Shown here piece after piece: positions 20,133 to 63,378 of a stretch of DNA of 64,000 bases. How positions within the stretch are numbered: position 1 is the stretch's first letter; every line of letters begins with the position of its first letter. Position numbers and translations under genes: made by a program. The DNA comes from Pseudomonadota bacterium (lineage in GTDB: Bacteria > Pseudomonadota > Gammaproteobacteria > Pseudomonadales > Pseudomonadaceae). The stretch is from the NCBI GenBank assembly GCA_023388335.1, contig JAEWGL010000213.1:14186-78185 (forward strand). The letters run 5' to 3'. Below the pieces are notes generated by a model. It saw only the letters and a list, made by a program, of their open reading frames with translations. It did not search any database and was not told the DNA's origin.

Positions 20133-21719
<1,587 letters not shown>

Positions 21720-21781
21720 AGGGCTTACCTATCAATAACTTACGCAGCTGGAATTTCCGCTGATACCAATTTGATACCAAT

Positions 21782-22098
21782 TTAAAGCTTTTCCAGCTCG
21801 CCCCAGTCGGAGCTTGAGTTGATCCAACGGGCGTACGTCGACAGCAGCATCTGCATGCTGTGACCAAGCTGTTGGGAGATGAATGCGGGGTTGAGGCCTG
21901 ACATTAAGCATATTGTCGCATAGGTATGGCGGCAGTTGTATGGGGGCCGGTATCGAATCCCAATTCGTTGAGGGCTGACCGCCATTGGTGGTGCAGGTCT
22001 GAGGTCTGTTTGACTTTTTCGGAACGAAGGCCATGGTTTGCGAGATCATGACCTTCCTTGATCGTCATGGTGGTGCAAAGGGCGGCGGCCGACACCAA
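21782..22098 (-). pseudogene. tyrosine integrase remnant (C-terminal catalytic part only, frameshifted)
   Basis: Frame B (21782..21985) encodes ...IRYRPPYNCRHTYATICLMSGLNPAFISQQLGHSMQMLLSTYARWI, with HxxR, His and Tyr catalytic motifs. Frame A (21904..22098) encodes ...HHQWRSALNELG. The two join as ...ALNELG|IRYR... if one G is restored in the GGG run near 21960. The whole N-terminal half is absent. Confidence 0.7.
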
Positions 22099-22124
22099 CG
22101 CTGATCGGCTGGCTTAGCGAGCCA

Positions 22125-22154
22125 TTGATGAAATATGAGCAATATGCGTATACT
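22125..22154 (+). promoter_or_regulatory. sigma70-like promoter of the toxin/antitoxin pair
   Basis: TTGATG-18 nt-TATACT. The -10 element ends only 8 nt before the ATG at 22163 and there is no RBS, so the transcript may be leaderless or nearly so. Confidence 0.4.
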
Positions 22155-22162
22155 TTGACCCA

Positions 22163-22508
22163 ATGAGAACAGTCTTCTTTGAAACCACCACCTTCACCGC
22201 TACGGTAGGCGATTACCTAACCGACGATGAGTACCGGCAGCTCCAGTTGGAGATGCAGAACAATCCTCAAGCTGGCGATGTGATGCCGAGGACTGGTGGG
22301 TTTAGGAAGCTTCGGTGGGCTGATGGTCGACGCGGAAAGGGAAAGCGCGGCGGCTTGCGAGTCATCTATTACTGGCTAACTCGATGATGGCCAATTTTGG
22401 ATGTTCGCGATCTATGACAAGGACGAGCTGGAGAATCTGACCTCAGATCAAGAGAAGGCGCTAAAGGCAGCAATTGGCGCTGAATTGAAGAAGCGAGGCA
22501 AGAAATGA
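22163..22508 (+). pseudogene. RelE/HigB-2-like toxin, interrupted by a frameshift
   Basis: Frame 1 gives MRTVFFETTTFTATVGDYLTDDEYRQLQLEMQNNPQAGDVMPRTGGFRKLRWADGRRGKGKRGGLRVIYYWLTR* (stop at 22385). The +1 frame continues (L)DDGQFWMFAIYDKDELENLTSDQEKALKAAIGAELKKRGKK* and ends at 22508, overlapping the antitoxin ATG (ATGA). Together they reconstruct a full-length toxin of this family. Confidence 0.65.
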
Positions 22509-22819
22509 AAAAACGTGATCTGTTCGCTGAAATGATGCAGGGCGTTAGCGAAATGGCAGCGCAGCGCGAGGGTAAAATTACCCTGCGCCAGTACGAAGGT
22601 GAGGATTTACCCGTTCCCGAGGTAACAGCACGAGAGATTGTGGCGCTGCGTGAAAGACTGCACATGTCTCAGTCTGTATTTGCCAGGCAGATTAGAACCA
22701 GTCCAAGCACGCTAAGGAATTGGGAGCAGTCGAAGTCAAAGCCGAATGACCAAGCGGCGCTGCTGATTAAGCTCGTTCAGCGCTTTCCTGATATGGTCGA
22801 GCGCCTTAAGGCGGTTTGA
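22505..22819 (+). CDS. XRE-type HTH antitoxin (HigA-2/NadS-like)
   Basis: 104-aa ORF. REIVALRERLHMSQSVFARQIRTSPSTLRNWEQSKSKPNDQAALLIKLV is the typical HTH of antitoxins encoded downstream of HigB-2-like toxins. Confidence 0.8.
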   Translation: MKKRDLFAEMMQGVSEMAAQREGKITLRQYEGEDLPVPEVTAREIVALRERLHMSQSVFARQIRTSPSTLRNWEQSKSKPNDQAALLIKLVQRFPDMVERLKAV

Positions 22820-22889
22820 GCCGAGGAGTTTTACAACGCCCGGCCCTGCGCTGTAATGCTGTTCATTGAAGCCAAGCGTGACCTCAACT

Positions 22890-22933
22890 GGGGCTGCTTC
22901 GCAGCCCTTCGCGGGCAAGCCCGCGCCCACAGG
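22890..22933. repeat. P. putida-type REP (repetitive extragenic palindromic) element, single copy
   Basis: GGGGCTGCTTCGCAGCCCTTCGCGGGCAAGCCCGCGCCCACAGG forms two adjacent GC hairpins (GGGCTGC/GCAGCCC and GCGGGC/GCCCGC). It gives the characteristic spurious translation GAGLPAKGCEAAP (ORF 22736..22930). Confidence 0.5.
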
Positions 22934-23027
22934 GTTCAGCTAAATCAATGAGTTAGCGTGTGTTCTATGAGCGAGCAGAAGATGATCGACGTTTTTGCTG
23001 CTGTGGAGCGATCCTGAGCGGTTGCCA

Positions 23028-23714
23028 TCACTGAGCCTGGATCAGCTCAGCGCCCTGATTGCGCACGTTACCCACCTGCTTGCTCACCGGATACCACCGA
23101 AAGTCCTCGGCTGGACGGCACCCAGTCTGCACGATCTGTGCGGCCCGTTCGACTGGGGTAGTTGGGTCAAGCCACTCCCGAGCAGTTTCAGGCGTCAGTA
23201 CCAGTGGCTTGCGGTCGTGAATGTCGACCAACCCTTGGTCGGCGGCGGCCGTGATAATCACGAAACCATCCCGCTCATCAGGCTCAATGCCGCGGTGCAC
23301 CTCGGTCAGCGCCGCAAAGAACAATGGCTCCCCACTGGCTGCGCTGATGTAGTAAGGCTGCTTGCGCTTGGGGTCCTGCGGATCCGGAATCCACTCGAAC
23401 CATCCATTTGCCGGGGCCAGGGCACGGCCATTCGGCCACAGCCCTTTGAAGAAATTCCCTGCCATTACCGTTTCGGCCCGTGCATTGATGGGGTCAGGTC
23501 GCTTTCCCTTCGCCCAGAACGGCGACCATCCCCACTTCACTCGATCGACGCTCAGCCCTCCATCGACTGGCCGGATAAGCTCGACGCGGGTGGACGGCGC
23601 GACGTTGTAGCGATTGATCTGCTCATGGTCGTAGCCATTGATCACCATCAAGTCCAGCGAGAGCTGTTTCAGGTAGTGGTCCATTGCCTCATAGATTGAG
23701 TACCGTCCGCACAT
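23028..23714 (-). CDS. SOS response-associated peptidase (SRAP/YedK family, abasic-site sensor)
   Basis: 228-aa ORF starting MCGRY (catalytic Cys2), followed by RYNVAPS and INARAET motifs. Confidence 0.9.
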   Translation of the reverse strand: MCGRYSIYEAMDHYLKQLSLDLMVINGYDHEQINRYNVAPSTRVELIRPVDGGLSVDRVKWGWSPFWAKGKRPDPINARAETVMAGNFFKGLWPNGRALAPANGWFEWIPDPQDPKRKQPYYISAASGEPLFFAALTEVHRGIEPDERDGFVIITAAADQGLVDIHDRKPLVLTPETAREWLDPTTPVERAAQIVQTGCRPAEDFRWYPVSKQVGNVRNQGAELIQAQ

Positions 23715-23828
23715 TTCCTACCTCTCCCTTGGTCGAAAACCATTCTGCCAGGTTGACCCATCGCCCGATGCCTAGAACACCGAGGTGAAAGGGCGGCACC
23801 TTCAAGCAGGCCTGGACTGACAGTGACT

Positions 23829-24149
23829 TCAGTACTCCAGTCGGCGCACTGGGACGTTTCCACGCTTGTACTGCTGATACCCGGTATACGGCAGTAAGAC
23901 GGTATCGACGATGCCTGACGCGGCCATGTCCAGCAAGATAGTAAATGGCGCCCAGTGAGCGCCTGACCTGGCCGGTCCATTCAAATTGCAATACTGATAC
24001 GCAACGCCGCTATAGGCGCGAGGTATCGAGTGGCAACTTGTGCTCCATTTCGCCAGATCATCTACGGCCTTCGATTCATCCGAGACAGATCTGACGGTCC
24101 CGCATCCAGTCAGTGCTGCTACCAGCAAACCTGCAGTCCATAGCTTCAT
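23829..24149 (-). CDS. YceK/YidQ family lipoprotein (DUF1375)
   Basis: ATG at 24149 after AGGAGA. The lipobox is in MKLWTAGLLVAALTGC. C-terminal ILLDMAASGIVDTVLLPYT resembles the E. coli YceK motif ILDLPFSLVFDTLLLPID. Confidence 0.65.
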   Translation of the reverse strand: MKLWTAGLLVAALTGCGTVRSVSDESKAVDDLAKWSTSCHSIPRAYSGVAYQYCNLNGPARSGAHWAPFTILLDMAASGIVDTVLLPYTGYQQYKRGNVPVRRLEY

Positions 24150-24352
24150 AACGGCGCTCTCCTGTGATGGCCTGATCATAGCCTTTCCTAGGCCATCATG
24201 GGGCTGCCCAAATGTTGATCCAGCCTTCAATTATTTAGCGTTCATCAATGGCACCTACCTGTGGCGGCAGCAGCATCGCCGCCAATATCGTAGTGGCAAT
24301 TTGGCTTCATATGGTCTTTGATTTCCCTATACGTCTGTCTTGGAGGGGCAAA

Positions 24353-24562
24353 ATGGAAATCGCTGAGTGCTGCAGACAATCAAGGGATGCATATGATTAT
24401 GCTGATGACCCGCGCTTTTTCTTGGAAACTCAAAGAAGAAACCCGATAGGCTGGGAGATCATATTTTTTGACTGCCAGTACTGCGGCTCGCAGTGGAAGC
24501 GGCAGCGTGAAGCTTTTCAAGGGGGCGACTTGTACTGGGTGCGCCTTCAGCCACAGTCATGA
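24353..24562 (+). CDS. hypothetical small Cys-containing protein (69 aa)
   Basis: GGAGGGG RBS then ATG at 24353. Translation is MEIAECCRQSRDAYDYADDPRFFLETQRRNPIGWEIIFFDCQYCGSQWKRQREAFQGGDLYWVRLQPQS (CC...CxxC). AT-rich, and I recognise no family. Confidence 0.45.
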   Translation: MEIAECCRQSRDAYDYADDPRFFLETQRRNPIGWEIIFFDCQYCGSQWKRQREAFQGGDLYWVRLQPQS

Positions 24563-24656
24563 AGACTGCTTTTTTCAGGGATGATTCGTGCGCAACAGCT
24601 ATTCAAGCAAGCACACTCTTGGCTTTGGAATCTGGCGCGCTCGGCAGGCGTAAAAA

Positions 24657-24677
24657 AGCCCGGCCTTTAGCCGGGCT
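24657..24677 (-). terminator. rho-independent terminator of higBA
   Basis: Read on the minus strand: AGCCCGGC-TAAAG-GCCGGGCT followed by TTTTTTA, 14 nt after the higA stop. Confidence 0.65.
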
Positions 24678-24690
24678 CCGGAATCGAGCG

Positions 24691-24993
24691 TCAGGCAACG
24701 AATAAACGCTGCACTTGCTCGGCTATTTTCTCTCCATGCTCTTGCTCGGCCTTGCGCAATTCGTAGGCCGTTTGCAGGTTAAGCCAAAACTCTGGAGTAG
24801 TGTCCAGGCAGGCGGCAAGACGAAGCGCCATATCAGCAGAAACGCCACCGCGCTCAAGCAAGATATTGTTCACGGTAGGGGTAGAGACACCCAAAGCGCG
24901 AGCCAAGGCAGCGGCGCTAAAGCTTATCTCACTCTGAAAATCCTCGCGCAGAACCTCGCCAGGATGTACGGGTCGCATGCCATTCTTGAACAT
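24691..24993 (-). CDS. higA: HigA antitoxin (XRE-type HTH)
   Basis: MFKNGMRPVHPGEVLREDFQSEISFSAAALARALGVSTPTVNNILLERGGVSADMALRLAACLDTTPEFWLNLQTAYELRKAE is the canonical HigA/VapI pattern. Confidence 0.85.
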   Translation of the reverse strand: MFKNGMRPVHPGEVLREDFQSEISFSAAALARALGVSTPTVNNILLERGGVSADMALRLAACLDTTPEFWLNLQTAYELRKAEQEHGEKIAEQVQRLFVA

Positions 24994-25001
24994 GATCCAC
25001 C

Positions 25002-25280
25002 TCAATGATAGTCAACAATTTCAACGTTTTCAGGACCATCCCCAGTCCACACGAAGCATAAGCGCCATTGGTCATTGATTGGTATGCTGTGCTGCCCAGC
25101 ACGGTTTCCACGAAGAGACTCAAGTCGATTACCGGGCGGTGAACGCAAGTCTCGAAGCTCTTTAGCGGCATCCAGCGCGGCCAGCTTGCGCTCGGCGACT
25201 GATTTGATATCGGACCAGTGCCGCGTTTTCCCGGTGGCGAAGAGCGCTCCGGTATCAGCGCATGCGAAGCTTCGGATCAT
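25002..25280 (-). CDS. higB: HigB toxin (plasmid maintenance system killer, RelE superfamily)
   Basis: 92-aa ORF MIRSFACADTGALFATGKTRHWSDIKSVAERKLAALDAAKELRDLRSPPGNRLESLRGNRAGQHSIPINDQWRLCFVW, the canonical HigB pattern. Toxin-first order. Confidence 0.85.
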   Translation of the reverse strand: MIRSFACADTGALFATGKTRHWSDIKSVAERKLAALDAAKELRDLRSPPGNRLESLRGNRAGQHSIPINDQWRLCFVWTGDGPENVEIVDYH

Positions 25281-25293
25281 GATTCGTAAGGCT

Positions 25294-25342
25294 TAACGTT
25301 ATTCGTTATGCTTGAGTATACGCCGTTTCTCCAGGTACTCAA
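25294..25342 (-). promoter_or_regulatory. higBA promoter with candidate HigA operator
   Basis: Read on the minus strand: TTGAGT-16 nt-TATACT (25342..25315), followed by the inverted repeat TAACG-AATAA-CGTTA (25308..25294) just upstream of the higB ATG. Confidence 0.45.
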
Positions 25343-25929
25343 CGATGGGTTGATACCGTTTCACGGTGCTGTCGGGCACTGGTTCCGGTGCCGCTTGGCC
25401 GCTTTGACGAGCGAATCCGCTGAGGCTGTTGGCCGAGGTTGTGGCGAAGGCGCGCCTCAGGCAAGGATTATCCCGGGTTGCTCGCTGCGCGAGTGAACGG
25501 CATGGAAAGGAACGGCAAGGCGCTGAAAAGAACGGCGACAGCTGATCAAGACCGAACCTGGCCCGTACTGCCTGTCGCCATCTCGCTTTCGTGATTTTTG
25601 TCGCTCACCGGAACGAGCACGTCCACTTGTGATTGCAGCGGTACGGCGCGCGAGTGAAGGCGACGTCCGATACGCGAGTGAGGCCGCGTTTTGCCAGGGC
25701 CTCGGTGAGCTGGGCGAGTGTCTCTGCTTCGATAGTCATTGCTGTACCTCGTCAGATTTACTGTGCTTATGTTTCTGGACTCGGCGTCTGGCGGCAGAAT
25801 TCACTTTGATTTTTCTCTGTTTTCCGCTTGATGATGATCGGATGAGCGGCATCGAATTCATTCGAACGTCTTCGTCGTGGCCTCCCTCCAAGTTCTACAG
25901 ATCCGTTATTGCAGGGCAGAGGAGAAGCA

Positions 25930-26166
25930 ATGATGAAACCTACAGACGACCAGGACATTTCCCGAGACGACCTTGCGCCGCTCTCGCCAGACCCGCTGAG
26001 CCCGGGCCGTACGGATGTCAATCCATCCCGTGAGCCGGGCGTGGAGGAGCTGCCAGTCAACGAGGGAGAGCGTCCGCTCGATGATCAGGATACGGGTCTT
26101 GATCCTGGCCGGGTGCGCGAGGAAACCGACAACGCTGAGCTGGACAACCAGCCAAACCCGCGTTGA
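25930..26166 (+). CDS. hypothetical acidic, Pro/Asp-rich, probably disordered small protein (78 aa)
   Basis: GAGGAGAA RBS then ATG at 25930. Translation MMKPTDDQDISRDDLAPLSPDPLSPGRTDVNPSREPGVEELPVNEGERPLDDQDTGLDPGRVREETDNAELDNQPNPR. Confidence 0.55.
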   Translation: MMKPTDDQDISRDDLAPLSPDPLSPGRTDVNPSREPGVEELPVNEGERPLDDQDTGLDPGRVREETDNAELDNQPNPR

Positions 26167-39041: not shown

Positions 39042-39079
39042 AAAAACAAAACCCCCGGTCGGGAGGCCGACCGGGGGTT
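39042..39079 (-). terminator. strong rho-independent terminator between the two leader ORFs
   Basis: Read on the minus strand: AACCCCCGGTCGG-CCTC-CCGACCGGGGGTT (a perfect 13-bp stem) followed by TTGTTTTT. Confidence 0.8.
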
Positions 39080-39129
39080 GAGTATTCTCGTGTTCGGCGG
39101 CCCCTCGAGAGTGGGCGCCGGTGTGGGTA

Positions 39130-39264
39130 TCAGCGGCGCCTGTGGCTAAACCAATACCCAAAATAGAAGCTGGCAGGAGCGACCGCCGGGCAACCGGCCA
39201 CGGCCAACCCAGGGCGCGCGGTGCGACCGGTATGACGAGCGAGGTTGAGGGTGGCGTTTGGCAT
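39130..39264 (-). CDS. candidate leader ORF 1 (44 codons) ending in an F-Y-F-G-Y-W-F run
   Basis: Not in the ORF track (<60 aa). GGAGAG-4 nt-ATG at 39264. Translation MPNATLNLARHTGRTARPGLAVAGCPAVAPASFYFGYWFSHRRR*. The aromatic codons TTC TAT TTT GGG TAT TGG TTT lie at 39168..39148. Confidence 0.45.
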   Translation of the reverse strand: MPNATLNLARHTGRTARPGLAVAGCPAVAPASFYFGYWFSHRRR

Positions 39265-55157: not shown

Positions 55158-56456
55158 ATGCGCAATTGGAAGGCACGACTGGGCAAAGGCTTCACGCTGC
55201 AGCCAGGAGAATGGCCGCCCGTGCTCGCCGGTCTGGCGCTGTTCTACCTGCTGTTCACCGGCTACTTCATGCTGCGTCCGGTGCGCGAGACCATGGGCGT
55301 GGCAGGGGGCGTGGACAACCTGCAGTGGCTGTTCACCGGCACCTTCATTGTCACCCTGGTGTGCCTGCCACTGTTCGGCTGGCTGGCCTCGCGGGTCCAG
55401 CGGCGGCGCATCCTGCCTTGGACCTACGGTTTCTTCGCCAGCAACTTGCTGGTTTTTGCCGGGCTTTTCGCCCAGGATCCGGATGACGTCTGGAATGCGC
55501 GGGCCTTCTACATCTGGCTATCGGTTTTCAACCTGCTGACTATCTCGCTGGCCTGGAGCGTGCTGGCCGATCTGTTCTCCAGCGAACAGGGCAAGCGCCT
55601 GTTCGGGCTGATGGCCGCCGGGGCCAGCCTGGGCGGGCTGAGCGGACCTATCCTCGGCGCCGTGCTCGTCGCCCCGCTCGGCCATGTCGGCTTGCTGATA
55701 CTGGCTAGCCTGCTCCTGCTGGCCAGCATCGGCGCGACCCTGTACCTGCACCGCTGGCGTGATCGTCATCCACTGCCGGCGCACACCGCGCATCCCGATT
55801 CCCGCCCGCTGGGCGGCAATCCTTTCGCGGGTGCCACGGCGGTGTTGCGTTCGCCGTACCTGCTGGGCATTGCCCTGTTCGTGGTGCTGCTAGCCAGCGT
55901 TAGCACCTTCTTGTACTTCGAGCAGGCACGGATCGTCAGCGAGACCTTTACCGACCGCACCCGGCAGACCCAGGTGTTCGGTCTGATCGACGCTGTAGTC
56001 CAGGCGTTGGCGATCCTCACCCAAGTGTTCATTACCGGACGCCTGGCACGGCGCCTGGGGGTCGGCGTATTGCTCGTGGCCGTGCCGCTGTTGATGACGG
56101 TAGGCTTTCTGTGGCTGGCCCTGGCGCCGGTGTTCGCGGTGTTTGTGGTGGTCATGGTGGTGCGCCGGGCTGGCGAATACGCGCTGGTTCGCCCGGGACG
56201 GGAGATGCTTTTTACTGTTCTGCCACCCGATGAGAAGTACAAGGCCAAGAACTTCATCGACACCGTGGTCTATCGCGGCGGTGATGCCCTGAGTGGCTGG
56301 GTCAAGCGCGCCTTGGACCTGATGGGTGATCATCCACAGTTGGCAATGGTGATCGGCGCAGGGATCGCGGTGGGCTGGGGTGTGACCGGCGGCTGGCTCG
56401 GTCGCCGGCAAGCACGATTGGAAACGCGCGACGCCGACACCGGATCACTTGGTTAA
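55158..56456 (+). CDS. MFS-type transporter (Npt1/TLC-like N-terminus)
   Basis: 432-aa, ~12-TM ORF. The N-terminal FYLLFTGYFMLRPVRETMG resembles NTP/NDP-exchanger-like MFS proteins. The substrate is unknown. Confidence 0.65.
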   Translation: MRNWKARLGKGFTLQPGEWPPVLAGLALFYLLFTGYFMLRPVRETMGVAGGVDNLQWLFTGTFIVTLVCLPLFGWLASRVQRRRILPWTYGFFASNLLVFAGLFAQDPDDVWNARAFYIWLSVFNLLTISLAWSVLADLFSSEQGKRLFGLMAAGASLGGLSGPILGAVLVAPLGHVGLLILASLLLLASIGATLYLHRWRDRHPLPAHTAHPDSRPLGGNPFAGATAVLRSPYLLGIALFVVLLASVSTFLYFEQARIVSETFTDRTRQTQVFGLIDAVVQALAILTQVFITGRLARRLGVGVLLVAVPLLMTVGFLWLALAPVFAVFVVVMVVRRAGEYALVRPGREMLFTVLPPDEKYKAKNFIDTVVYRGGDALSGWVKRALDLMGDHPQLAMVIGAGIAVGWGVTGGWLGRRQARLETRDADTGSLG

Positions 56457-56476
56457 TTGGGGCGCCAAAGATAGTT

Positions 56477-56524
56477 TTCGCTTTATTTAATGCCGTCGGT
56501 CCGACCGCTTGGAAATAAAGCGAA
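56477..56524. repeat. perfect 12-bp AT-rich inverted repeat with nested hairpin
   Basis: TTCGCTTTATTT (56477..56488) and AAATAAAGCGAA (56513..56524). The 24-nt spacer contains GTCGG-T-CCGAC. Confidence 0.6.
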
Positions 56525-56603
56525 TCACGGCCGCCGCGGGGTACTCCCAACCTATGAGCATGGCCCCGTCATGCGTTTGCGTAACGACTTGAGGTGAATG
56601 ATC

Positions 56604-56777
56604 ATGGCTAACAAACAGACCGGCAGCCAGGGCGGAAAGGAAAACTCTGGCAACTTCGCCAACGATCGGGAAAAAGCAGCCGAAGCAGGCCGTAAAGGCG
56701 GACAGCAATCCGGCAGCGGCAAGGCGGGTGGCATGGCGCCCGATAAAGATTCTGGCCGCAAAGGCGGCCGCTCTTAA
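56604..56777 (+). CDS. KGG-repeat general stress protein (YciG-like)
   Basis: Not in the ORF track (57 aa). GAGGTG RBS. Translation MANKQTGSQGGKENSGNFANDREKAAEAGRKGGQQSGSGKAGGMAPDKDSGRKGGRS, with repeated (R)KGG motifs. Confidence 0.7.
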   Translation: MANKQTGSQGGKENSGNFANDREKAAEAGRKGGQQSGSGKAGGMAPDKDSGRKGGRS

Positions 56778-56847
56778 GTGACGGCTGCGCGGTGCCAGGT
56801 TGCAGGATCCTGGCGCCGCGATCAGGCCGATTGATCGGAGAACTCCT

Positions 56848-57039
56848 ATGCGAATAGCCCCACTGCTAGGCCTGTTGGGCAGTCTCTTGCTGCTCAACGG
56901 CTGCTTCGACCGCGACGACCACCCGGCCAAGGATGCCGACCCCAGCAAACCTTCCTTGCAGATGCAGAAACCTGATGCGTCGACCACCTCTGGCGCCCCT
57001 GCGCAACAGCCGTTGCCATCGCCTGAAAAGGACAACTGA
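56848..57039 (+). CDS. small lipoprotein (63 aa)
   Basis: GGAGAA RBS then ATG at 56848. The lipobox is in MRIAPLLGLLGSLLLLNGC. The mature part is Pro/Asp/Ser-rich. Confidence 0.55.
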   Translation: MRIAPLLGLLGSLLLLNGCFDRDDHPAKDADPSKPSLQMQKPDASTTSGAPAQQPLPSPEKDN

Positions 57040-57057
57040 TCGTTGGAGGGCCCAGGT

Positions 57058-58401
57058 ATGACGGTCATGATTCGCAATGGCGCCACTACGGCGGTGCCCT
57101 TGCCTGAACAGGCAACCTATAAGGCTCGTTACCAGGCCATGCTCGAGGGTAACAGCAGCGATAGCGCCAGTTGGCTCGCCAGCCAGTTGGACCGCACCGA
57201 CGGCCTGCCTGATACCTTGCCAGCTTCACCCTCTGCCTTGTTCCATTGGACAAATCACGCTGCTGGCGAGGTGGCGCAGGCCTATGCGCGCTATCTTGAA
57301 CAACGCCGCCAGGGCAGCCCTCGCCAGTACTTTGCCAACCGCGCCCAAGCGCTGTATTTCATCCAGCAGGTCGCGCCGACCAAGGCGGTCGATGGCGCCT
57401 GGCTGCAAGGCACCTTGCGCCATTGGCGCGACCCGCGCTTTCACGGCCTGATCCGTACCTACCTTGAAGAGCTCGGCGACGGCGATGCACGCGGCAACCA
57501 TGTGCTGGTGTACCAGCGCCTGCTCAGCCATCTCGGCTGCCTGGAGCCCGTACTGCTGGATGATGAGCGTTATCTGCAAGGCGCGATCCAGTTGGCCCTG
57601 GGTCTCAATACGCAAGCCTTCCTGCCAGAAGTGATCGGTTACAACCTGGGGTATGAGCAGCCGCCTTTGCACCTGTTGATCACCACCTTCGAATTGGCGG
57701 AACTGGGCATCGACGCTCATTACTTCCGCTTGCATGTAACGATCGACAATGCCGCCAGCGGCCACGCGCAGAAGTCGGTGCAAGCCCTGCATCTGCTGTT
57801 GCCTGAAGGCGATTGGCAAGACTTTTACCGCCGCGTGGCGCGCGGCTATCGCCTCAACGACCTGGGCATGGACACCCCCAGCCTGATCGCCGGCTTCGAC
57901 CTGCACGGTGAGTTGGTGTCAGCACTCGAGCGCAAGCGCAGCTTCGGTCAGTACATGCATTCGGATTACTGCAAGCTGCAAGGTCGGACCATCAACCAAT
58001 GGCTTGGCGAGCCCGGCAGCATGCCCGCCTTCCTCGAAGCGCTACAGGCCCAAGGCTGGATCAAGCGCGACCAGCAGCCGTCGCAGAGCCGCTTCTGGGG
58101 GCTGATCGAGGGGCCCGCGGCGCCCATGATCGGCGTCTTCACGCCCTACGAGATGCAGCTTTGGCATGACTGGATTGCCGGCAGCTGGCAGGCGCCGCCT
58201 TGTCGTCGGCTGCAGCCGGGCAGTTGGGAGCCCGATACGCGGCAATCATCAACATCAGTCAGATGCGCAGAAGCGTTGCCTGATGACATCGATGGATTGA
58301 TCGAGCGCATGGCCGGCAACCGGCATGCCTTGCCAGGCGGCCTGCAGGCCACCCAGGCCTACGGGAAACTCACCGGATTGTCCCATGGGAGACCTTGCTG
58401 A
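57058..58401 (+). CDS. heme-oxygenase-like diiron oxidase/oxygenase (HDO; iron-containing redox enzyme family)
   Basis: GGAGGG RBS then ATG at 57058. Candidate metal-ligand helices are YLEELGDGDARGNH, EVIGYNLGYE and LHVTIDNAASGH, giving an E...H / E / H-x3-D...H pattern as in the SznF/CADD/UndA-type family. Confidence 0.7.
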   Translation: MTVMIRNGATTAVPLPEQATYKARYQAMLEGNSSDSASWLASQLDRTDGLPDTLPASPSALFHWTNHAAGEVAQAYARYLEQRRQGSPRQYFANRAQALYFIQQVAPTKAVDGAWLQGTLRHWRDPRFHGLIRTYLEELGDGDARGNHVLVYQRLLSHLGCLEPVLLDDERYLQGAIQLALGLNTQAFLPEVIGYNLGYEQPPLHLLITTFELAELGIDAHYFRLHVTIDNAASGHAQKSVQALHLLLPEGDWQDFYRRVARGYRLNDLGMDTPSLIAGFDLHGELVSALERKRSFGQYMHSDYCKLQGRTINQWLGEPGSMPAFLEALQAQGWIKRDQQPSQSRFWGLIEGPAAPMIGVFTPYEMQLWHDWIAGSWQAPPCRRLQPGSWEPDTRQSSTSVRCAEALPDDIDGLIERMAGNRHALPGGLQATQAYGKLTGLSHGRPC

Positions 58402-59354
58402 TGCTGTTGAACGAAGACCAGATCCAGGCCGATGAAGCCTTGCTGCAACTCGGCCGTCGACTGAGCGCCGACGGTTACCAGTTCACCTGCGTGACCCCAG
58501 CGACCCAGGCGCGCAACAACGCCCGGACCTCGGCACAGCGGGCCCACACCTTGCGCGATGTGTTTGGCTGGAATCGACCATTTCCGGCGTCTTTGCTGTC
58601 GGCCGACGAGCTACAGCAGCTGCGTGCCGCGCAGGTGCTGGAGGAGCAGGGCGAATTGCTGCGCAGTCGAGTGCGCTGGTCCAGCCTCAACGACCTGTTG
58701 CTGGTGCATTCGGGCTACCCCACCGACGCGCAGGATGCAGTGTTCTTCGGCCCCGACAGCTACCGTTTCGCGCAGGTGATCAGCGATCACCTGCAGCATA
58801 GTTTTGCCCACCTCCATCACGCACTGGACATCGGTTGCGGCAGTGGCATCGGCGCCTTGCTGATCGCCAGCGCGGCCCGTCATGCCCAGGTCACTGCGGT
58901 GGACATCAACCCATTGGCCCTGCGTTATGCCGCGATCAACGCGGCACTGGCCGGCCTGGGCAATGTGGCGGTGGCGCAGAGCGATCTGCTCGAAGATGTC
59001 ACCGGTACCTTCGATCTGATCGTCGCCAACCCACCCTATATGCTCGACGCCGATGAGCGCCTGTACCGTCATGGTGGCGGCCCGCTAGGGGCGGCGTTGT
59101 CCGTGCGCATCGTCGAACAGGCTCTGCCGCGCCTGAGCCCAGGCGGCAGCTTGCTGCTGTACACCGGGGTGGCGGTCGTCGAGGGCAAGGACGCCTTGCT
59201 CGCCGCGATCCGCTTGCGCTTGGCCGGACCCGAGTGGCGTTGGTACTACCGCGAGCTGGACCCGGACGTGTTCGGCGAGCAGCTCGAAGAAACCGGTTAT
59301 GACCAGGTCGAGCGAATCGCCGCTGTCGCCCTGACCGTCACCCGCGCCAGTTGA
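58401..59354 (+). CDS. class I SAM-dependent methyltransferase with NPPY motif (HemK/PrmC-like N-methyltransferase fold)
   Basis: Its ATG shares one nucleotide with the HDO stop (TGATG). Motif I LDIGCGSGIGALLIA and motif IV DLIVANPPYM. Confidence 0.8.
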   Translation: MLLNEDQIQADEALLQLGRRLSADGYQFTCVTPATQARNNARTSAQRAHTLRDVFGWNRPFPASLLSADELQQLRAAQVLEEQGELLRSRVRWSSLNDLLLVHSGYPTDAQDAVFFGPDSYRFAQVISDHLQHSFAHLHHALDIGCGSGIGALLIASAARHAQVTAVDINPLALRYAAINAALAGLGNVAVAQSDLLEDVTGTFDLIVANPPYMLDADERLYRHGGGPLGAALSVRIVEQALPRLSPGGSLLLYTGVAVVEGKDALLAAIRLRLAGPEWRWYYRELDPDVFGEQLEETGYDQVERIAAVALTVTRAS

Positions 59355-59365
59355 GCGCTACGACC

Positions 59366-60529
59366 ATGGCCGCGCCTTGCAATTTCGGCATCGAGGAAGA
59401 ATACCTGCTGGTGGATCGTGCCAGTGGGCAGGTGTTGGCTCGACCTTCGCTGGCGGTGGCCAGGTTATGCCGCGAGGTAATGGGCAAGTACCTGGCCGAG
59501 GAGATGTTCCGTAGCCAGATCGAGATCGCCTCCCCAGTGTTTGGCAACCTGCACCAGGCGCGCGAGTTCTTCACCCAGAGTCGACAGCATCTGGCCAAGG
59601 CGCTGGCCGAGGAAAACGTCGGGCTGTTCTGCGCGGCCAGCCACCCTTCGTCGCTGTGGCTACGTCAGCAGCCTCGGCCCACGCCGCACTATCGACAGAT
59701 ATTCCAGGACTATCAGCACGTCGCCCGGCGCAGCCTGCTCTCGGGTCTGCATGTGCATGTCGGTGTGCCGGAAGGCTGCGACCGTATCCAGCTGATCAAC
59801 CGGGTGCTGTATTGGCTACCGCTGCTGCTGCTGCTCAGTACCTCGTCTCCGCTGTGGGGCGGGCAGGTCACCGGCTACATGAGCTATCGGCGGGTCATCT
59901 GTGGCGAGTGGCCGCACATGGGGCTGCCCGAGCCGCTCGCTGACTGGTCGGCCTACCAGCGCTATCGGACCTTGTTGCACCGCACCGGGGCGCTGGCGGC
60001 GGATGGCGCGCTGTGGTGGGCAATCCGGCCATCCCATCGGTTTCCCACCGTCGAACTGCGAATCACCGATGCTTGTCCGCGGCTGGAAGATGCTCTGTGC
60101 ATTGCCGGGTTGTTCCGGCACTTGGTCGAGCACTGCGCGGTGCCGCGCTACGATCCGCAACCGCTGAGCCGGGAAATACGCTGGGTGACCCAGGAGAACT
60201 ACTGGCGCGCGCTGCGCTACGGCCGCCAGGGAACCTACATAGGGGTGCACGACCAACATCCCGTGACTGCCTTGGGCTGGCTTGCCCAGGCCCAAGCCCA
60301 GTTCGGCTGTGATACGGCTGACGCCGACCGGGCGTTCCAGCATGCCCGGCGGATCCTTACCGAGGGCACCAGCGCCGAACGCCAGTTGGCCAGCCTGGAG
60401 CAGGCCCGGCGCGGAGGGCTGGACCACCGCCAGGCGCTGCGCGTGGTCGTCGACGAACTGCTGGAAGAGGCCGTAGCCGATGATGGCCATGGTGCCTCGA
60501 CACCCATCGCCCTGCAGGGGCAAGCCTGA
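59366..60529 (+). CDS. carboxylate-amine ligase, glutamate-cysteine ligase family 2 (YbdK-like)
   Basis: FGIEEEYLLVD N-terminal motif and GLHVHVGV. The start is either TTG at 59351, overlapping the methyltransferase stop, or ATG at 59366. Confidence 0.85.
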   Translation: MAAPCNFGIEEEYLLVDRASGQVLARPSLAVARLCREVMGKYLAEEMFRSQIEIASPVFGNLHQAREFFTQSRQHLAKALAEENVGLFCAASHPSSLWLRQQPRPTPHYRQIFQDYQHVARRSLLSGLHVHVGVPEGCDRIQLINRVLYWLPLLLLLSTSSPLWGGQVTGYMSYRRVICGEWPHMGLPEPLADWSAYQRYRTLLHRTGALAADGALWWAIRPSHRFPTVELRITDACPRLEDALCIAGLFRHLVEHCAVPRYDPQPLSREIRWVTQENYWRALRYGRQGTYIGVHDQHPVTALGWLAQAQAQFGCDTADADRAFQHARRILTEGTSAERQLASLEQARRGGLDHRQALRVVVDELLEEAVADDGHGASTPIALQGQA

Positions 60530-60553
60530 TCGATAAACGTGGAGGCACCTGAA

Positions 60554-60787
60554 ATGAACGAACTCCTTCCCTACTTCTGGACCGCCATGGCGGTGATCGT
60601 CCTATTGCTGGACCTCTGGGCCATCGTCAGTGTATTGCGCAGTCAGAAGTCCCAGGGCACCAAGCTGATATGGGTCCTGGTGCTGTTGCTGCTGCCGGTC
60701 CTTGGGCTGATCATCTGGGGCATTGCAGGTCCGCGGGGCATCAAGCCTGGGTCCGGACCGACCTCGCCGGAACATAGCAAAGGCTAG
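60554..60787 (+). CDS. PLD-nuclease N-terminal (PLDc_N) domain small membrane protein
   Basis: GGAGG RBS then ATG at 60554. Two TM segments, with LWAIVSVLRS...TKLIWVLVLLLLPVLGLIIWGIAGPR. Confidence 0.65.
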   Translation: MNELLPYFWTAMAVIVLLLDLWAIVSVLRSQKSQGTKLIWVLVLLLLPVLGLIIWGIAGPRGIKPGSGPTSPEHSKG

Positions 60788-61236
60788 CTCGCCCCATCCC
60801 GGCTGATGATCGAGATCTTGCCGTTGCGTTCGACGATGGCGTATCGGATCTGGCTGACGTCCGTGAGGCCCTGATTGGCGCGCGCCGACTCGAGAATATC
60901 GTCCTCGGTCAATCGCGAGCGGCGCATGCGGCCATGCAAAAAGTGTCCGTCCTCGACCACCACGGTGGCATGCCCGTCAAGCAGCCGGGCCACGCTCAGC
61001 GAGTTGAGCTTGACCAGTGACAGGCCCACGTCCAGCACGATCAGCGTGGCAATCACCAGCACCGCATTGGTGAACGAGAAATCCTCCCCCAGCAGCGCTT
61101 GCTGGGTAGCTTCGCCGATGATCAGCAGCAGGACGAAATCAAAGGTCGTCAGATCCGCCAACGAGCGGCGCCCGGCAACCCGAAACAACACCATCAGCGC
61201 CACATACATGGCACCTGCGCGCAAGACTGAATCCAT
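60784..61236 (-). CDS. DUF421 (YetF-like) membrane protein
   Basis: 150-aa ORF. ...RVAGRRSLADLTTFDFVLLLIIGE... is typical of DUF421. Confidence 0.75.
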   Translation of the reverse strand: MDSVLRAGAMYVALMVLFRVAGRRSLADLTTFDFVLLLIIGEATQQALLGEDFSFTNAVLVIATLIVLDVGLSLVKLNSLSVARLLDGHATVVVEDGHFLHGRMRRSRLTEDDILESARANQGLTDVSQIRYAIVERNGKISIISRDGAS

Positions 61237-61245
61237 GTCGTTTCC

Positions 61246-61755
61246 TCAGGGATAGACGAAAGTGGAAAAGCGCACGGCGCTGTCTGGGCCAACCCGTGCG
61301 GTGCCACTGAACTGACCGATATTGTCGTTGCGCAGCGTCACGTACAAGGTGGCAAAACCGTCCCGGTCCGTGCCCAGGTGGAGCAGCAGGGCACGTCCCT
61401 GGGACACGGAAACCAGAGGTTGAGGTTGCAGCGTCTCTATCGTGAGGTCGCGGAACATGGAACCGCCAAGCAGCAGCGTGGCTTCTGAATCAGGCTTGCC
61501 CTGCACGCGGATGCGCAGCTGCTCCGCGGCGCCGTTGCGGGTGAACCGTGCATACTCCACTTGCACCCGCCCGTCGGCGCTTCTCACCGTGCGTTCGCTG
61601 AGCGGGCCGTTGCCGAACAGGCCTGCCAGGCTCAGGCCGACCACGCCCACCAAGGCGTACCAGCCCAGACGCTCGAAGCGCCAGACCCGCCGTTGCATGC
61701 GCATGTCTTCGCTGACAGGGTAGTGCCGGGCCGACTCTTCATCCGTGTTCGCCAT
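61246..61755 (-). CDS. hypothetical single-TM protein (169 aa)
   Basis: An ORF with good coding character, lying between pncC-like and DUF421 genes on the same strand with 9-27 nt gaps. Confidence 0.5.
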   Translation of the reverse strand: MANTDEESARHYPVSEDMRMQRRVWRFERLGWYALVGVVGLSLAGLFGNGPLSERTVRSADGRVQVEYARFTRNGAAEQLRIRVQGKPDSEATLLLGGSMFRDLTIETLQPQPLVSVSQGRALLLHLGTDRDGFATLYVTLRNDNIGQFSGTARVGPDSAVRFSTFVYP

Positions 61756-61782
61756 GGCTCTGCGTCTCCTGGGTAGCGCGTG

Positions 61783-62289
61783 TCAGGCGCGCTCGCCACG
61801 TAACCAGCGTTGATGGAAATGCATCAGTTGCACCAGCCCGTGCAAGGAAGCCTGGTGCAATACCGTATGACGGTCGCCGAAGAATCGCTCGGTGCGACTG
61901 AACACAGCCGCCGTCGGCAGTTCGGCAAAGGCCCAGGCGAAACACAAGGTACCGGGTTGTATGGCACCCTGCGGCTCGGGGCCGGCGACGCCAGTGGTGG
62001 CGATGGCGACGCTGGCCGGGCTGTCGGCCAGCGCGCCGAGGGCCATTTCCCGGGCGACTTCCTGACTGGTCAGGCCGAACTGTTCGATGGTCCGTGCCTT
62101 GACCCCGAGCAGGCGCTGCTTGGCGTCTGGGGAATACACTACATAGCCGCTTTCGAGTACGCAGCCGGTGCCGGTCTTTTCGGACAGCAACGCTACCATC
62201 CTGCCGGCTGTACACGATTCGGCGGTGGTTAACAGCAGGCCGTGGGCCTTAAGGTAGTTCTCTACCTGGTCGATCGGATCGTGGGCCAT
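61783..62289 (-). CDS. pncC: CinA C-terminal domain / nicotinamide-nucleotide amidohydrolase PncC-like
   Basis: 168-aa ORF containing LLLTTAESCTAGRMVALL...YVVYSPDAKQRLLGV. Confidence 0.85.
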   Translation of the reverse strand: MAHDPIDQVENYLKAHGLLLTTAESCTAGRMVALLSEKTGTGCVLESGYVVYSPDAKQRLLGVKARTIEQFGLTSQEVAREMALGALADSPASVAIATTGVAGPEPQGAIQPGTLCFAWAFAELPTAAVFSRTERFFGDRHTVLHQASLHGLVQLMHFHQRWLRGERA

Positions 62290-62469
62290 GATTTCTCGCC
62301 TAGTACGTTTCTCATGTGGTGGACGCTAGTGCCCACAGATTGGTTCAGACCGCTTACGGCAACCATCGGTCGGTGCCTTCGCTGCCCGGAGCAAACCTTC
62401 TGAGCCTGTGTGCGCTCGAATGTCCAGTACCTGCGCCAGCCGGCGCCACAACCCCTCAGGAGGTGGCCA

Positions 62470-63378
62470 ATGCCCAAGAGCAAACCCCAAGATCAGTACA
62501 GCATGCAGAACCCGCTTACGCAGTATCCGCAACCACCTTTTCCCGCGCAGACTCAGCCCGAGCCTGGCCTGGATGCGAAGATGAACCCCGAGCCTGACCA
62601 CGGCGAACAGACTTACAAAGGCTTTGGCCGGCTCGCCGGACGCAAGGCGCTGATCACCGGCGCCGACTCAGGTATAGGTCGTGCCGTGGCGATTGCCTAT
62701 GCCCGGGAGGGGGCTGACATCGTGCTCAACTACCTGCCGATCGAGCAGGCCGATGCGCGCGAAGTGATCAAGCTGATCGAAGCCGAAGGGCGCAAGGCCA
62801 TCGCCCTGCCAGGCGATCTCAAGGATGAGGCCTTCTGCAAGCAGCTGGTCGATCAGGCCCATGAGCAACTGGGCGGCCTGGACATCCTGGTCAATGTCGC
62901 CGGCAAGCAGATTGCTCGCAAGGACGTGGGCCAGGTCAGCAGCGAGCAGTTCGACGCGACCATGAAGACCAACGTCTATGCCTTGTTCTGGCTATGCCAG
63001 GCGGCTGTGCCGCTGATGCCGGCCGGCGGCACCATCATCAATACCGCTTCGATCCAGTCCTACCAGCCTTCGGCGACGTTGCTCGACTACGCCACCACCA
63101 AGGCAGCCATCGTCGCCTTTACCAAGGCCTTGGCCAAACAGGTGATCGAGCGCGGTATTCGAGTCAACGCCGTGGCGCCGGGACCGATCTGGACGGTGCT
63201 GCAACCGAGCGGCGGACAACCCCCGGAGAAGATTCCCGATTTCGGCAGCCAGACGCCCATGAAGCGGCCCGGCCAACCAGCCGAATGCGCCCCCTTGTAT
63301 GTGCTGCTTGCCTCGCAGGAGTCCAGCTACATCACCGGCGAGATCTTCGGCGTCACGGGCGGTAATCCGCTGCCGTAG
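62470..63378 (+). CDS. SDR family oxidoreductase (YghA / general-stress-protein-39-like)
   Basis: AGGAGG RBS then ATG at 62470. The N-terminal [34 protein letters not shown]... leader is typical of this SDR subgroup. [10 protein letters not shown] motif. Confidence 0.9.

Follow-up and report, generated by a model that had tools for sequence, protein, structure and literature searches.

Why should the genes for a heme-oxygenase-like enzyme, a methyltransferase and an ATP-dependent ligase be packed head-to-tail in a pseudomonad genome, and what could their products have in common? The question is raised by a 64,000-nt stretch of contig JAEWGL010000213.1 from a bacterium of the Pseudomonadaceae (the whole stretch is called the window below, and all positions follow its numbering), in which a gene for a heme-oxygenase-like dimetal oxidase (HDO) is followed by genes for an S-adenosylmethionine (SAM)-dependent N-methyltransferase (MT) and a YbdK-family carboxylate-amine ligase. 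An earlier note on this DNA took the three genes for a candidate uncharacterised small-molecule pathway. By sequence comparison, the HDO is no orphan but a full-length homolog of the genetically characterised DtpC protein of Acinetobacter baumannii. We propose, with a probability of roughly 0.55, that the locus is the Pseudomonas putida-group form of a DtpC desiccation and oxidative-stress module, whose HDO, MT and ligase would share one nitrogen-containing substrate.

The oxidase and its kinship with DtpC

The HDO protein, whose nearest relatives belong to the P. putida group, matched PF14518 with 89.4 bits (cutoff 28.9; E 3e-25; residues 100-266). This was the sole domain found in it by a Pfam and NCBIfam scan; no cupin domain was detected, which agrees with the different layout from SznF that had been pointed out before. 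For the AF2 model of the protein (predicted local distance difference test, pLDDT, 90.8; predicted template modelling score, pTM, 0.91), the top matches among PDB folds were all HDOs, i.e. HrmI, SznF, BesC and CADD (probability ~1.0), at a remote level of similarity (template modelling score, TM, 0.35-0.59; 16-18% identity). Fold comparison alone gave these matches; neither a single-sequence nor a profile search of PDB with the sequence produced any. Six putative metal ligands (E138, H148, E200, H226, D230 and H236) do not vary in any of the 161 HDO family sequences from the collected loci, and the last ligand motif of this predicted site reads H-x3-D-x5-H with a helix break. In SznF and CADD the last ligand motif is H-x3-D-x2-H. 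The Pfam match, the predicted fold and the invariant residues thus identify the product as a predicted member of the HDO family, and the original assignment stands. It shares with HrmI/BelK, SznF, BesC, CADD and UndA the heme-oxygenase-like helical bundle, PF14518 and a putative ligand set of three His plus three carboxylates, but differs from HrmI/SznF-type enzymes by extra domains of ~100 aa (N-terminal) and ~180 aa (C-terminal), and appears tied to stress protection, not to natural-product synthesis.

The alignment with A. baumannii DtpC (P0273; ABUW_2437 or A1S_1385) extends over 415 aa with 38% identity (residues 39-438 of 447, E = 4e-94) and takes in the N- and C-terminal extensions that both proteins have around the PF14518 core. 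Loss of DtpC causes desiccation sensitivity and a build-up of H2O2 (10.1101/2021.08.11.455981, PMC13232832). As a 2026 study showed, the dtpC gene is co-transcribed with katE, one of the two is enough for desiccation survival, and both restrict H2O2 accumulation and mutagenesis in dried cells; DtpC alone complements a dtpC katE double mutant, and dipyridyl rescues dtpC mutants (PMC13232832). Each of the substitutions E143A, H153A and H232A abolishes protection (PMC13232832), and all three residues are conserved in the window HDO, where they align with E138, H148 and H226. The second major desiccation determinant of A. baumannii is a KGG-domain protein encoded in the same cluster (10.1101/2021.08.11.455981). 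According to the authors of the DtpC study, the Pseudomonas homologs are uncharacterised and no mechanism can be proposed; they left three options, i.e. iron sequestration, scavenging of reactive oxygen species (ROS) and synthesis of a protective small molecule, and their paper does not mention a methyltransferase (PMC13232832). The window HDO, in which alignment indicates that every putative ligand has been kept, is a new member of a family known by genetics and not by biochemistry. In the hospital pathogen A. baumannii, few known factors determine survival on dry surfaces as strongly as DtpC. FXO12_02520 of Pseudomonas sp. J380, an 'iron-containing redox enzyme' of ~459 aa whose induction by dipyridyl is shared with katE, dps and sodA, may be a further ortholog.

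Gene neighbourhoods were compared in 80 Pseudomonas loci from reference genomes, 52 other high-GC metagenome loci and 28 Acinetobacter-type loci. The low-GC metagenome loci proved to be those of Acinetobacter, where the homolog lies between a CinA-like gene, flanking dtpC in 20 of the 28 loci, and the gene for a large catalase (katE, adjacent in 21), with genes for a YghA-like short-chain dehydrogenase/reductase (SDR) and a KGG-type protein beside them. KGG, YghA-like SDR and CinA-like proteins are neighbour kinds common to this region and to the window. However, katE is adjacent in none of the Pseudomonas loci and was not found in the window: whereas dtpC of Acinetobacter is co-transcribed with katE and usually lacks MT and ligase genes, its Pseudomonas counterpart has a coupled N-methyltransferase gene, followed in most cases by a ligase gene. 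The presence of katE characterises the locus and not the protein.

The family itself is fairly small. An exhaustive search recovered 914 representative proteins at E<=1e-3 (137 at <=1e-30), ranging from Gamma- and Betaproteobacteria up to eukaryotes, including an amoebozoan. In one distant family member encoded outside the window (P0268, 1398 aa), LodA_N and LodA_C domains are joined to an HDO domain of the DtpC-like kind, with 32% identity over 312 aa. LodA-type proteins are quinoprotein amino-acid oxidases, an H2O2-producing class, and a survey of LodA-like proteins recorded some fused to a catalase-like domain and others to PF14518 (PMC4417212). These two kinds of fusion parallel the redundancy of DtpC and KatE and suggest by analogy that peroxide, or a product of the oxidase, is what the HDO domain may handle. 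Four distant full-length members (P0169, P0172, P0178 and P0182) have lost at least one putative ligand in the H226/D230/H236 region and may be non-catalytic paralogs. HDO-MT fusion proteins were also sought; an MT domain was present in none of the 10 long family members checked.

Partner enzymes and the conservation of gene order

The MT matched PF05175 (MTS) with 65 bits (cutoff 23, E 8e-18) and carries at residues 209-213 an ANPPY motif that is invariant within its family. It stays below the cutoffs of the PrmC/HemK models (TIGR03534, 77.4 vs 199.1; TIGR00536, 73 vs 115.5; TIGR03533, 63.9 vs 229.7). With a profile of the MT family, the match to PDB entries was confined to the catalytic domain (residues 127-256) and was best for PrmC (E = 3e-15), while the predicted whole-chain fold, obtained with Acinetobacter homologs (pLDDT 82.6), was closest to AerE (TM 0.76), followed by GenN (about 0.58) and PrmC (0.49). 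Because the protein misses the PrmC/HemK cutoffs and its whole-chain fold is nearest to AerE and GenN, we regard it as a predicted N-methyltransferase of a distinct family, with a modelled fold that would fit a small-molecule or a peptide/protein substrate alike. The previously noted likeness to HemK/PrmC holds for the predicted nitrogen methylation but not for the enzyme type. AerE (the Asn N-methyltransferase of aeronamide, acting on side-chain amides of a ribosomal peptide), GenN (the 3''-N-methyltransferase of the aminoglycoside gentamicin) and PrmC/HemK all have the class I SAM fold with NPPY, used for nitrogen methylation, and the first two also share the two-domain architecture of the window MT. 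On the other hand, all three show ~20% identity to it, the N-terminal domain and overall architecture of the window MT are not of the PrmC type, and its family has invariant motifs of its own (FGWN.PF, VFFGPD.YRF, YRHGG and DPDVFGE).

The ligase exceeds the cutoffs of NF010039 (carboxylate-amine ligase; 456 bits, cutoff 371), TIGR02050 (347.7 bits, cutoff 176.4) and PF04107 (GCS2; 209.4 bits, cutoff 21, E 1e-61), and is homologous over ~300 residues to YbdK (PDB 1r8g; E 5e-27). Against NF010040, the E. coli YbdK clade, it reaches 146 bits, below the cutoff of 425. We therefore place it in the NF010039 clade of YbdK-like enzymes, not in that of E. coli YbdK, and ligation is its predicted activity. 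Passing the TIGR02050 YbdK-family and NF010039 cutoffs is what likens it to E. coli YbdK; what sets it apart is its own clade and a fixed operon context, which, as far as we know, E. coli ybdK does not have. We know of no physiological role for YbdK-type ligases. For all four families that had been called from the sequence (HDO, NPPY methyltransferase, YbdK-type ligase and the small PLDc_N protein encoded downstream) the Pfam and NCBIfam scores exceed the cutoffs.

The gene order is strikingly constant in its first part. MT directly follows HDO in 80/80 Pseudomonas loci and in 35/52 other high-GC loci; in 59 of 111 loci the stop codon of HDO shares one base with the start codon of MT, a gap of <=14 nt being found in almost all others, and this overlap is conserved across distant taxa. 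The arrangement, present in 80 Pseudomonas genomes and dozens of further contigs, is far beyond chance, and the locus is a near-universal chromosomal locus of the P. putida group, set amid stress genes. A ligase gene comes directly after MT in 63/80 Pseudomonas and 9/52 other high-GC loci, mostly at a distance of -8 to +14 nt. The translational coupling that the earlier note had proposed holds and is recurrent; of its trio, only the HDO-MT pair is tightly conserved, and the ligase is optional. Pseudomonas palmensis BBB001 has two HDO-MT copies (L049 and L057), one with the ligase and one without it.

Among the Acinetobacter-type loci an MT gene was found nearby in just three (L092, L094 and L098), where dtpC and katE in forward orientation are followed by MT and SDR genes in reverse orientation. 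This MT is 39% identical to that of the window over its full length, the SDR gene lies directly 5' of it on the same strand, and the MT family is common in environmental Acinetobacter. Literature searches for HDO, ligase and methyltransferase combined found nothing, and those for a carboxylate-amine ligase in P. putida nothing relevant; in the literature searched there is, as had been supposed, no characterised pathway with this trio, and to our knowledge the conserved coupling of HDO, MT, ligase, SDR and KGG genes has not been described.

A shared substrate or separate tasks

A protective role and its dependence on metal ligands have been shown for the A. baumannii relative and are carried over to the window locus by analogy; what we infer is that the enzymes share a substrate, in which order they react and how the genes are transcribed. 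According to our proposal, a transcript starting at the KGG gene would run through a leaky hairpin and cover the KGG, lipoprotein, HDO, MT, ligase and PLDc_N genes. The HDO and the MT, joined by the ligase in those loci that have it and perhaps by the SDR, would act on a single nitrogen-containing substrate, either a small metabolite or a peptide, in which the ligase would form an amide bond of the gamma-glutamyl type, the MT would methylate an amide or amine nitrogen, and the HDO would carry out an oxidation with O2 or H2O2. Either this chemistry or the compound that results from it would reduce the damage that peroxide and iron cause in cells that are dry or not growing. The indispensable core of the module would be the HDO, with the MT as the partner that it usually has outside the A. 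baumannii group and with the ligase as an accessory.

Such a module supports the 'protective small molecule' option left open by the authors of the DtpC study and, by the coupling to a methyltransferase, a ligase and a reductase, makes it testable and provides a lead to DtpC chemistry. It would also give a physiological setting to YbdK-type ligases and to a new N-methyltransferase family, and it points to a conserved stress module that may matter for the survival of pseudomonads in soil and on plants when these dry out. A more far-reaching idea, which we put forward tentatively and regard as possible but short of probable, is that the three enzymes make or turn over a new protective compound, an N-methylated, oxidised amide or gamma-glutamyl derivative with antioxidant or metal-binding properties, and that this compound is the basis of DtpC-dependent desiccation tolerance. 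If this is true, the chemistry would be widespread in Proteobacteria, and YbdK-type ligases would have their first physiological role. The pathways of ergothioneine (EgtA-E) and fluopsin C (FlcA-E) resemble it in logic only: an iron oxidase and a methyltransferase yield an antioxidant or metal-binding small molecule, and the Egt set also includes a GCS2-type ligase. However, homology to the window enzymes is superfamily-level at most, the window ligase scores 15.9 bits against the EgtA model TIGR03444 (cutoff 370.8), and EgtB, EgtD and lyase genes are absent at the window locus.

Several points weigh against a shared-substrate module. The activities of all three enzymes are predicted, the desiccation role of the Pseudomonas genes is argued from analogy with A. 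baumannii, and read-through from the KGG promoter is deduced from spacing alone. The ligase gene is missing without remnant in 17/80 Pseudomonas loci. The MT gene is missing from 17/52 high-GC loci; when an alternative HDO partner was sought there, those examined had only unrelated neighbours, e.g. genes for cyanophycin synthetase-like ligases and ABC transporters. In A. baumannii-type loci dtpC has no adjacent MT or ligase gene, which implies that DtpC may protect cells alone. Furthermore, no A. baumannii protein was among the best 120 matches to the Acinetobacter MT, and in A. schindleri the MT gene lies elsewhere, beside a pirin gene.

Part of this evidence would suit co-expressed but independent stress proteins that form no pathway. 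The HDO would then protect cells alone, through iron binding or slow scavenging of peroxide or superoxide at its dimetal site, and the MT and the ligase would have unrelated targets (e.g. protein methylation and the synthesis of gamma-glutamyl-cysteine-type thiols). Complementation of the double mutant by DtpC alone, the solitary dtpC of A. baumannii-type loci, the facultative ligase, the mixed content of the stress island, the rescue by dipyridyl, and the two options of iron sequestration and ROS scavenging all fit this explanation. Nevertheless, the one-base HDO/MT overlap conserved across distant taxa and the unbroken adjacency in Pseudomonas are typical of joint action and so speak against it, members of the MT family also accompany the island in some Acinetobacter, and a two-metal site in a 447-aa enzyme would make a poor iron store; we consider independent action rather unlikely, though it is the main alternative. 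It is quite improbable, in our view, that the target is a protein or peptide, e.g. the GGQ-containing KGG hydrophilin, of which the MT would methylate a Gln or Asn side chain and which the HDO and ligase would modify too. The nearest MT relatives AerE and PrmC indeed N-methylate side-chain amides of peptides and proteins, the KGG gene lies immediately upstream and its product contains KGGQ in 48/52 Pseudomonas loci, and the carboxylate-amine ligase superfamily includes the Pup ligases, whose substrates are proteins. This possibility is weakened because the HDO-MT pairs of other taxa (35 high-GC loci) occur without a KGG gene, which is nearby in 1 of the 52 high-GC loci. Moreover, some KGG proteins have K rather than Q after GG, the equally close relative GenN methylates a small molecule, and we know of no HDO that acts on any protein besides itself.

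The earlier note's comparison with the streptozotocin pathway would suggest a classical secondary-metabolite cluster, whose product would be a bioactive N-oxygenated, N-N-bonded, N-nitroso or metal-binding compound made much as streptozotocin (SznE/SznF) or fluopsin C (FlcA-E) is. Most HDOs with a characterised structure have biosynthetic roles, the best fold matches are the N-oxygenases HrmI and SznF, tailoring is typically done by enzymes such as an N-methyltransferase and an ATP-dependent ligase, and a gene for a major facilitator superfamily (MFS) transporter lies nearby. However, the analogy with streptozotocin is weak: there is no cupin domain, SznF is a remote fold match (TM about 0.35) and the MT is nearer to AerE/GenN. 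Pfam and NCBIfam scans likewise found no gene for a nonribosomal peptide synthetase (NRPS), polyketide synthase (PKS), regulator or resistance function, and MFS synteny is limited to 31/80 loci. Since the cupin is lacking, SznF is remote, the locus is near-universal in the P. putida group and set among stress genes, and the characterised homolog has a desiccation/H2O2 phenotype and not an antibiotic one, this is the least supported of the explanations, with a small chance of being correct.

Layout of the operon, its upstream edge and its surroundings

The open reading frames (ORFs), junctions and motifs reported before were all recovered (Table 1), and independent gene calls on a metagenome contig encoding the identical protein gave the same gene models. 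Between the lipoprotein ORF and the start of HDO there are 18 nt, and GGAGG lies 8 nt 5' of the HDO ATG. The HDO stop TGA (58399-58401) and the MT ATG (58401-58403) have one base in common. The ligase ATG lies 11 nt past the MT stop, and an alternative TTG at 59351 overlaps that stop. The ligase stop is 24 nt from the PLDc_N start, again with GGAGG 8 nt upstream. All HDO and MT motifs were present in the translations: YLEELGDGDARGNH, EVIGYNLGYE, LHVTIDNAASGH, GCGSG and ANPPY.

Table 1. Features of the DtpC-type locus and its flanks in the 64,000-nt window
Feature	Positions	Strand	Evidence
Conserved non-coding block, candidate promoter/operator	56486..56560	+	Alignment of 17 upstream regions
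KGG-repeat stress protein gene (57 aa; YciG-like hydrophilin, KGGQ)	56604..56777	+	PF10685
Conserved GC-rich hairpin (12 bp), KGG/lipoprotein intergenic	56788..56820	+	Folding, covariation
Small predicted lipoprotein (63 aa; lipobox LLNGC)	56848..57039	+	ORF, conserved protein
DtpC-family HDO (447 aa), core gene	57058..58401	+	PF14518, DtpC homology
NPPY-type SAM-dependent N-methyltransferase (317 aa), family-specific N-terminal domain	58401..59354	+	PF05175
YbdK-family ATP-dependent carboxylate-amine ligase (387 aa), facultative member	59366..60529	+	NF010039, TIGR02050, PF04107
PLDc_N small membrane protein, two transmembrane segments (77 aa), occasional last operon gene	60554..60787	+	PF13396
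Opposite-strand cassette: YetF/DUF421, 169-aa hypothetical, CinA/PncC-like	60784..62289	-	PF04239/PF20730, PF02464
YghA/PRK06128-type SDR oxidoreductase, recurrent module partner	62410..63378	+	NF004782

The operon probably starts further upstream than the earlier note had drawn it, at the KGG gene. The KGG protein scores 37.5 bits against PF10685 (cutoff 20.4), and its gene lies 5' on the same strand in 54/80 Pseudomonas loci; in 48 of 61 loci its stop precedes the ATG of the lipoprotein gene by 41-70 nt. The hairpin between the two genes has a fold energy of -35.8 kcal/mol (z = -2.8) and shows compensatory changes in 6 of 10 consensus pairs (25 loci); it is about 15-30 nt from the next ribosome-binding site, most copies have no U-tract, and it looks like a terminator or attenuator. 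Further 5', the alignment of upstream regions revealed an invariant CGAATC at 56521-56526, together with conserved TTATTTAA.GCC..GGTCCGA and ACTCC..ATG. A scan of positions 56300-61400 detected no sigma-70 consensus promoter, and the one terminator-like site that it gave on the plus strand falls within the MT gene, probably by chance; no RNA element was found near the operon by an Rfam scan. As no sigma-70-like promoter was detected in the operon, expression of the downstream genes would depend on transcripts that start at the KGG promoter and read through the hairpin, and the hairpin would determine the ratio.

Twelve Pseudomonas loci without the KGG gene (L041, L043, L046, L049-L053, L064, L066, L070 and L071) have a distinct, mutually conserved region ~160 nt 5' of the lipoprotein/HDO genes. 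It contains the pattern ACGAAT(T)C ... (G/A)ACTC(G/C) with a spacing similar to that in the pre-KGG block of other loci, and this pattern may be a common promoter or operator. Within the presumed 5' untranslated region of the KGG gene (56557-56575) lies a short hairpin, ACGGC...GCCGTGC, conserved in most genomes and weaker in the window. For PP_3963 of P. putida KT2440, a KGG-protein mRNA reported to be bound by Rsm proteins, no link to this locus was found.

The small genes at the borders of the operon differ in their constancy. The lipoprotein gene is directly 5' of HDO in 60/80 Pseudomonas loci and its product, with 50-85% identity, has no family match in Pfam or NCBIfam. The PLDc_N gene (46.6 bits against PF13396, cutoff 23.3, E 3e-12) is found in just 6/80, five of which have the order MT-PLDc_N-SDR. 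The SDR (589 bits against NF004782, cutoff 481) is encoded within 6 kb in 29/80 Pseudomonas loci, in 13 of these 29 on the same strand and <=250 nt after the ligase or PLDc_N gene, and beside dtpC-katE in 17/28 Acinetobacter loci. In the window, it is separated from the operon by the YetF-hypothetical-CinA cassette, an arrangement seen in 6-7 other Pseudomonas loci. Directly 5' of the KGG gene is the gene for the MFS transporter (55158-56456, plus strand; weak match to the TLC ATP/ADP transporters), whose synteny with the operon includes genes for an aldo-keto reductase and a BASS/SBF transporter. The statement that no NRPS/PKS, regulator or exporter gene was adjacent thus fails for the exporter and remains valid for the others, none of which appeared in the scans. 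With its KGG, YghA-like SDR, CinA, YetF and PLDc_N genes, the locus is a general-stress or desiccation island and not a classical biosynthetic cluster.

The 169-aa protein in the middle of the cassette (61246-61755, minus strand), also present there in several Pseudomonas loci, has no Pfam or NCBIfam match. The convergent PLDc_N (plus) and YetF (minus) 3' ends overlap by 4 nt (60784-60787), with no terminator-like structure between them. Elsewhere in the window, positions 21500-26000 have a G+C content of 53-58% (vs 63% for the window) and contain short ORFs, with no long coding-like ORF; this region may have been acquired horizontally as an islet, or may consist of several small genes. An Rfam scan of the window, in which no tRNA genes were seen, gave as its sole match a full-length Pseudomonas small RNA P15 (RF00627) at 39052-39172 on the minus strand, with 110 bits (gathering score 70).

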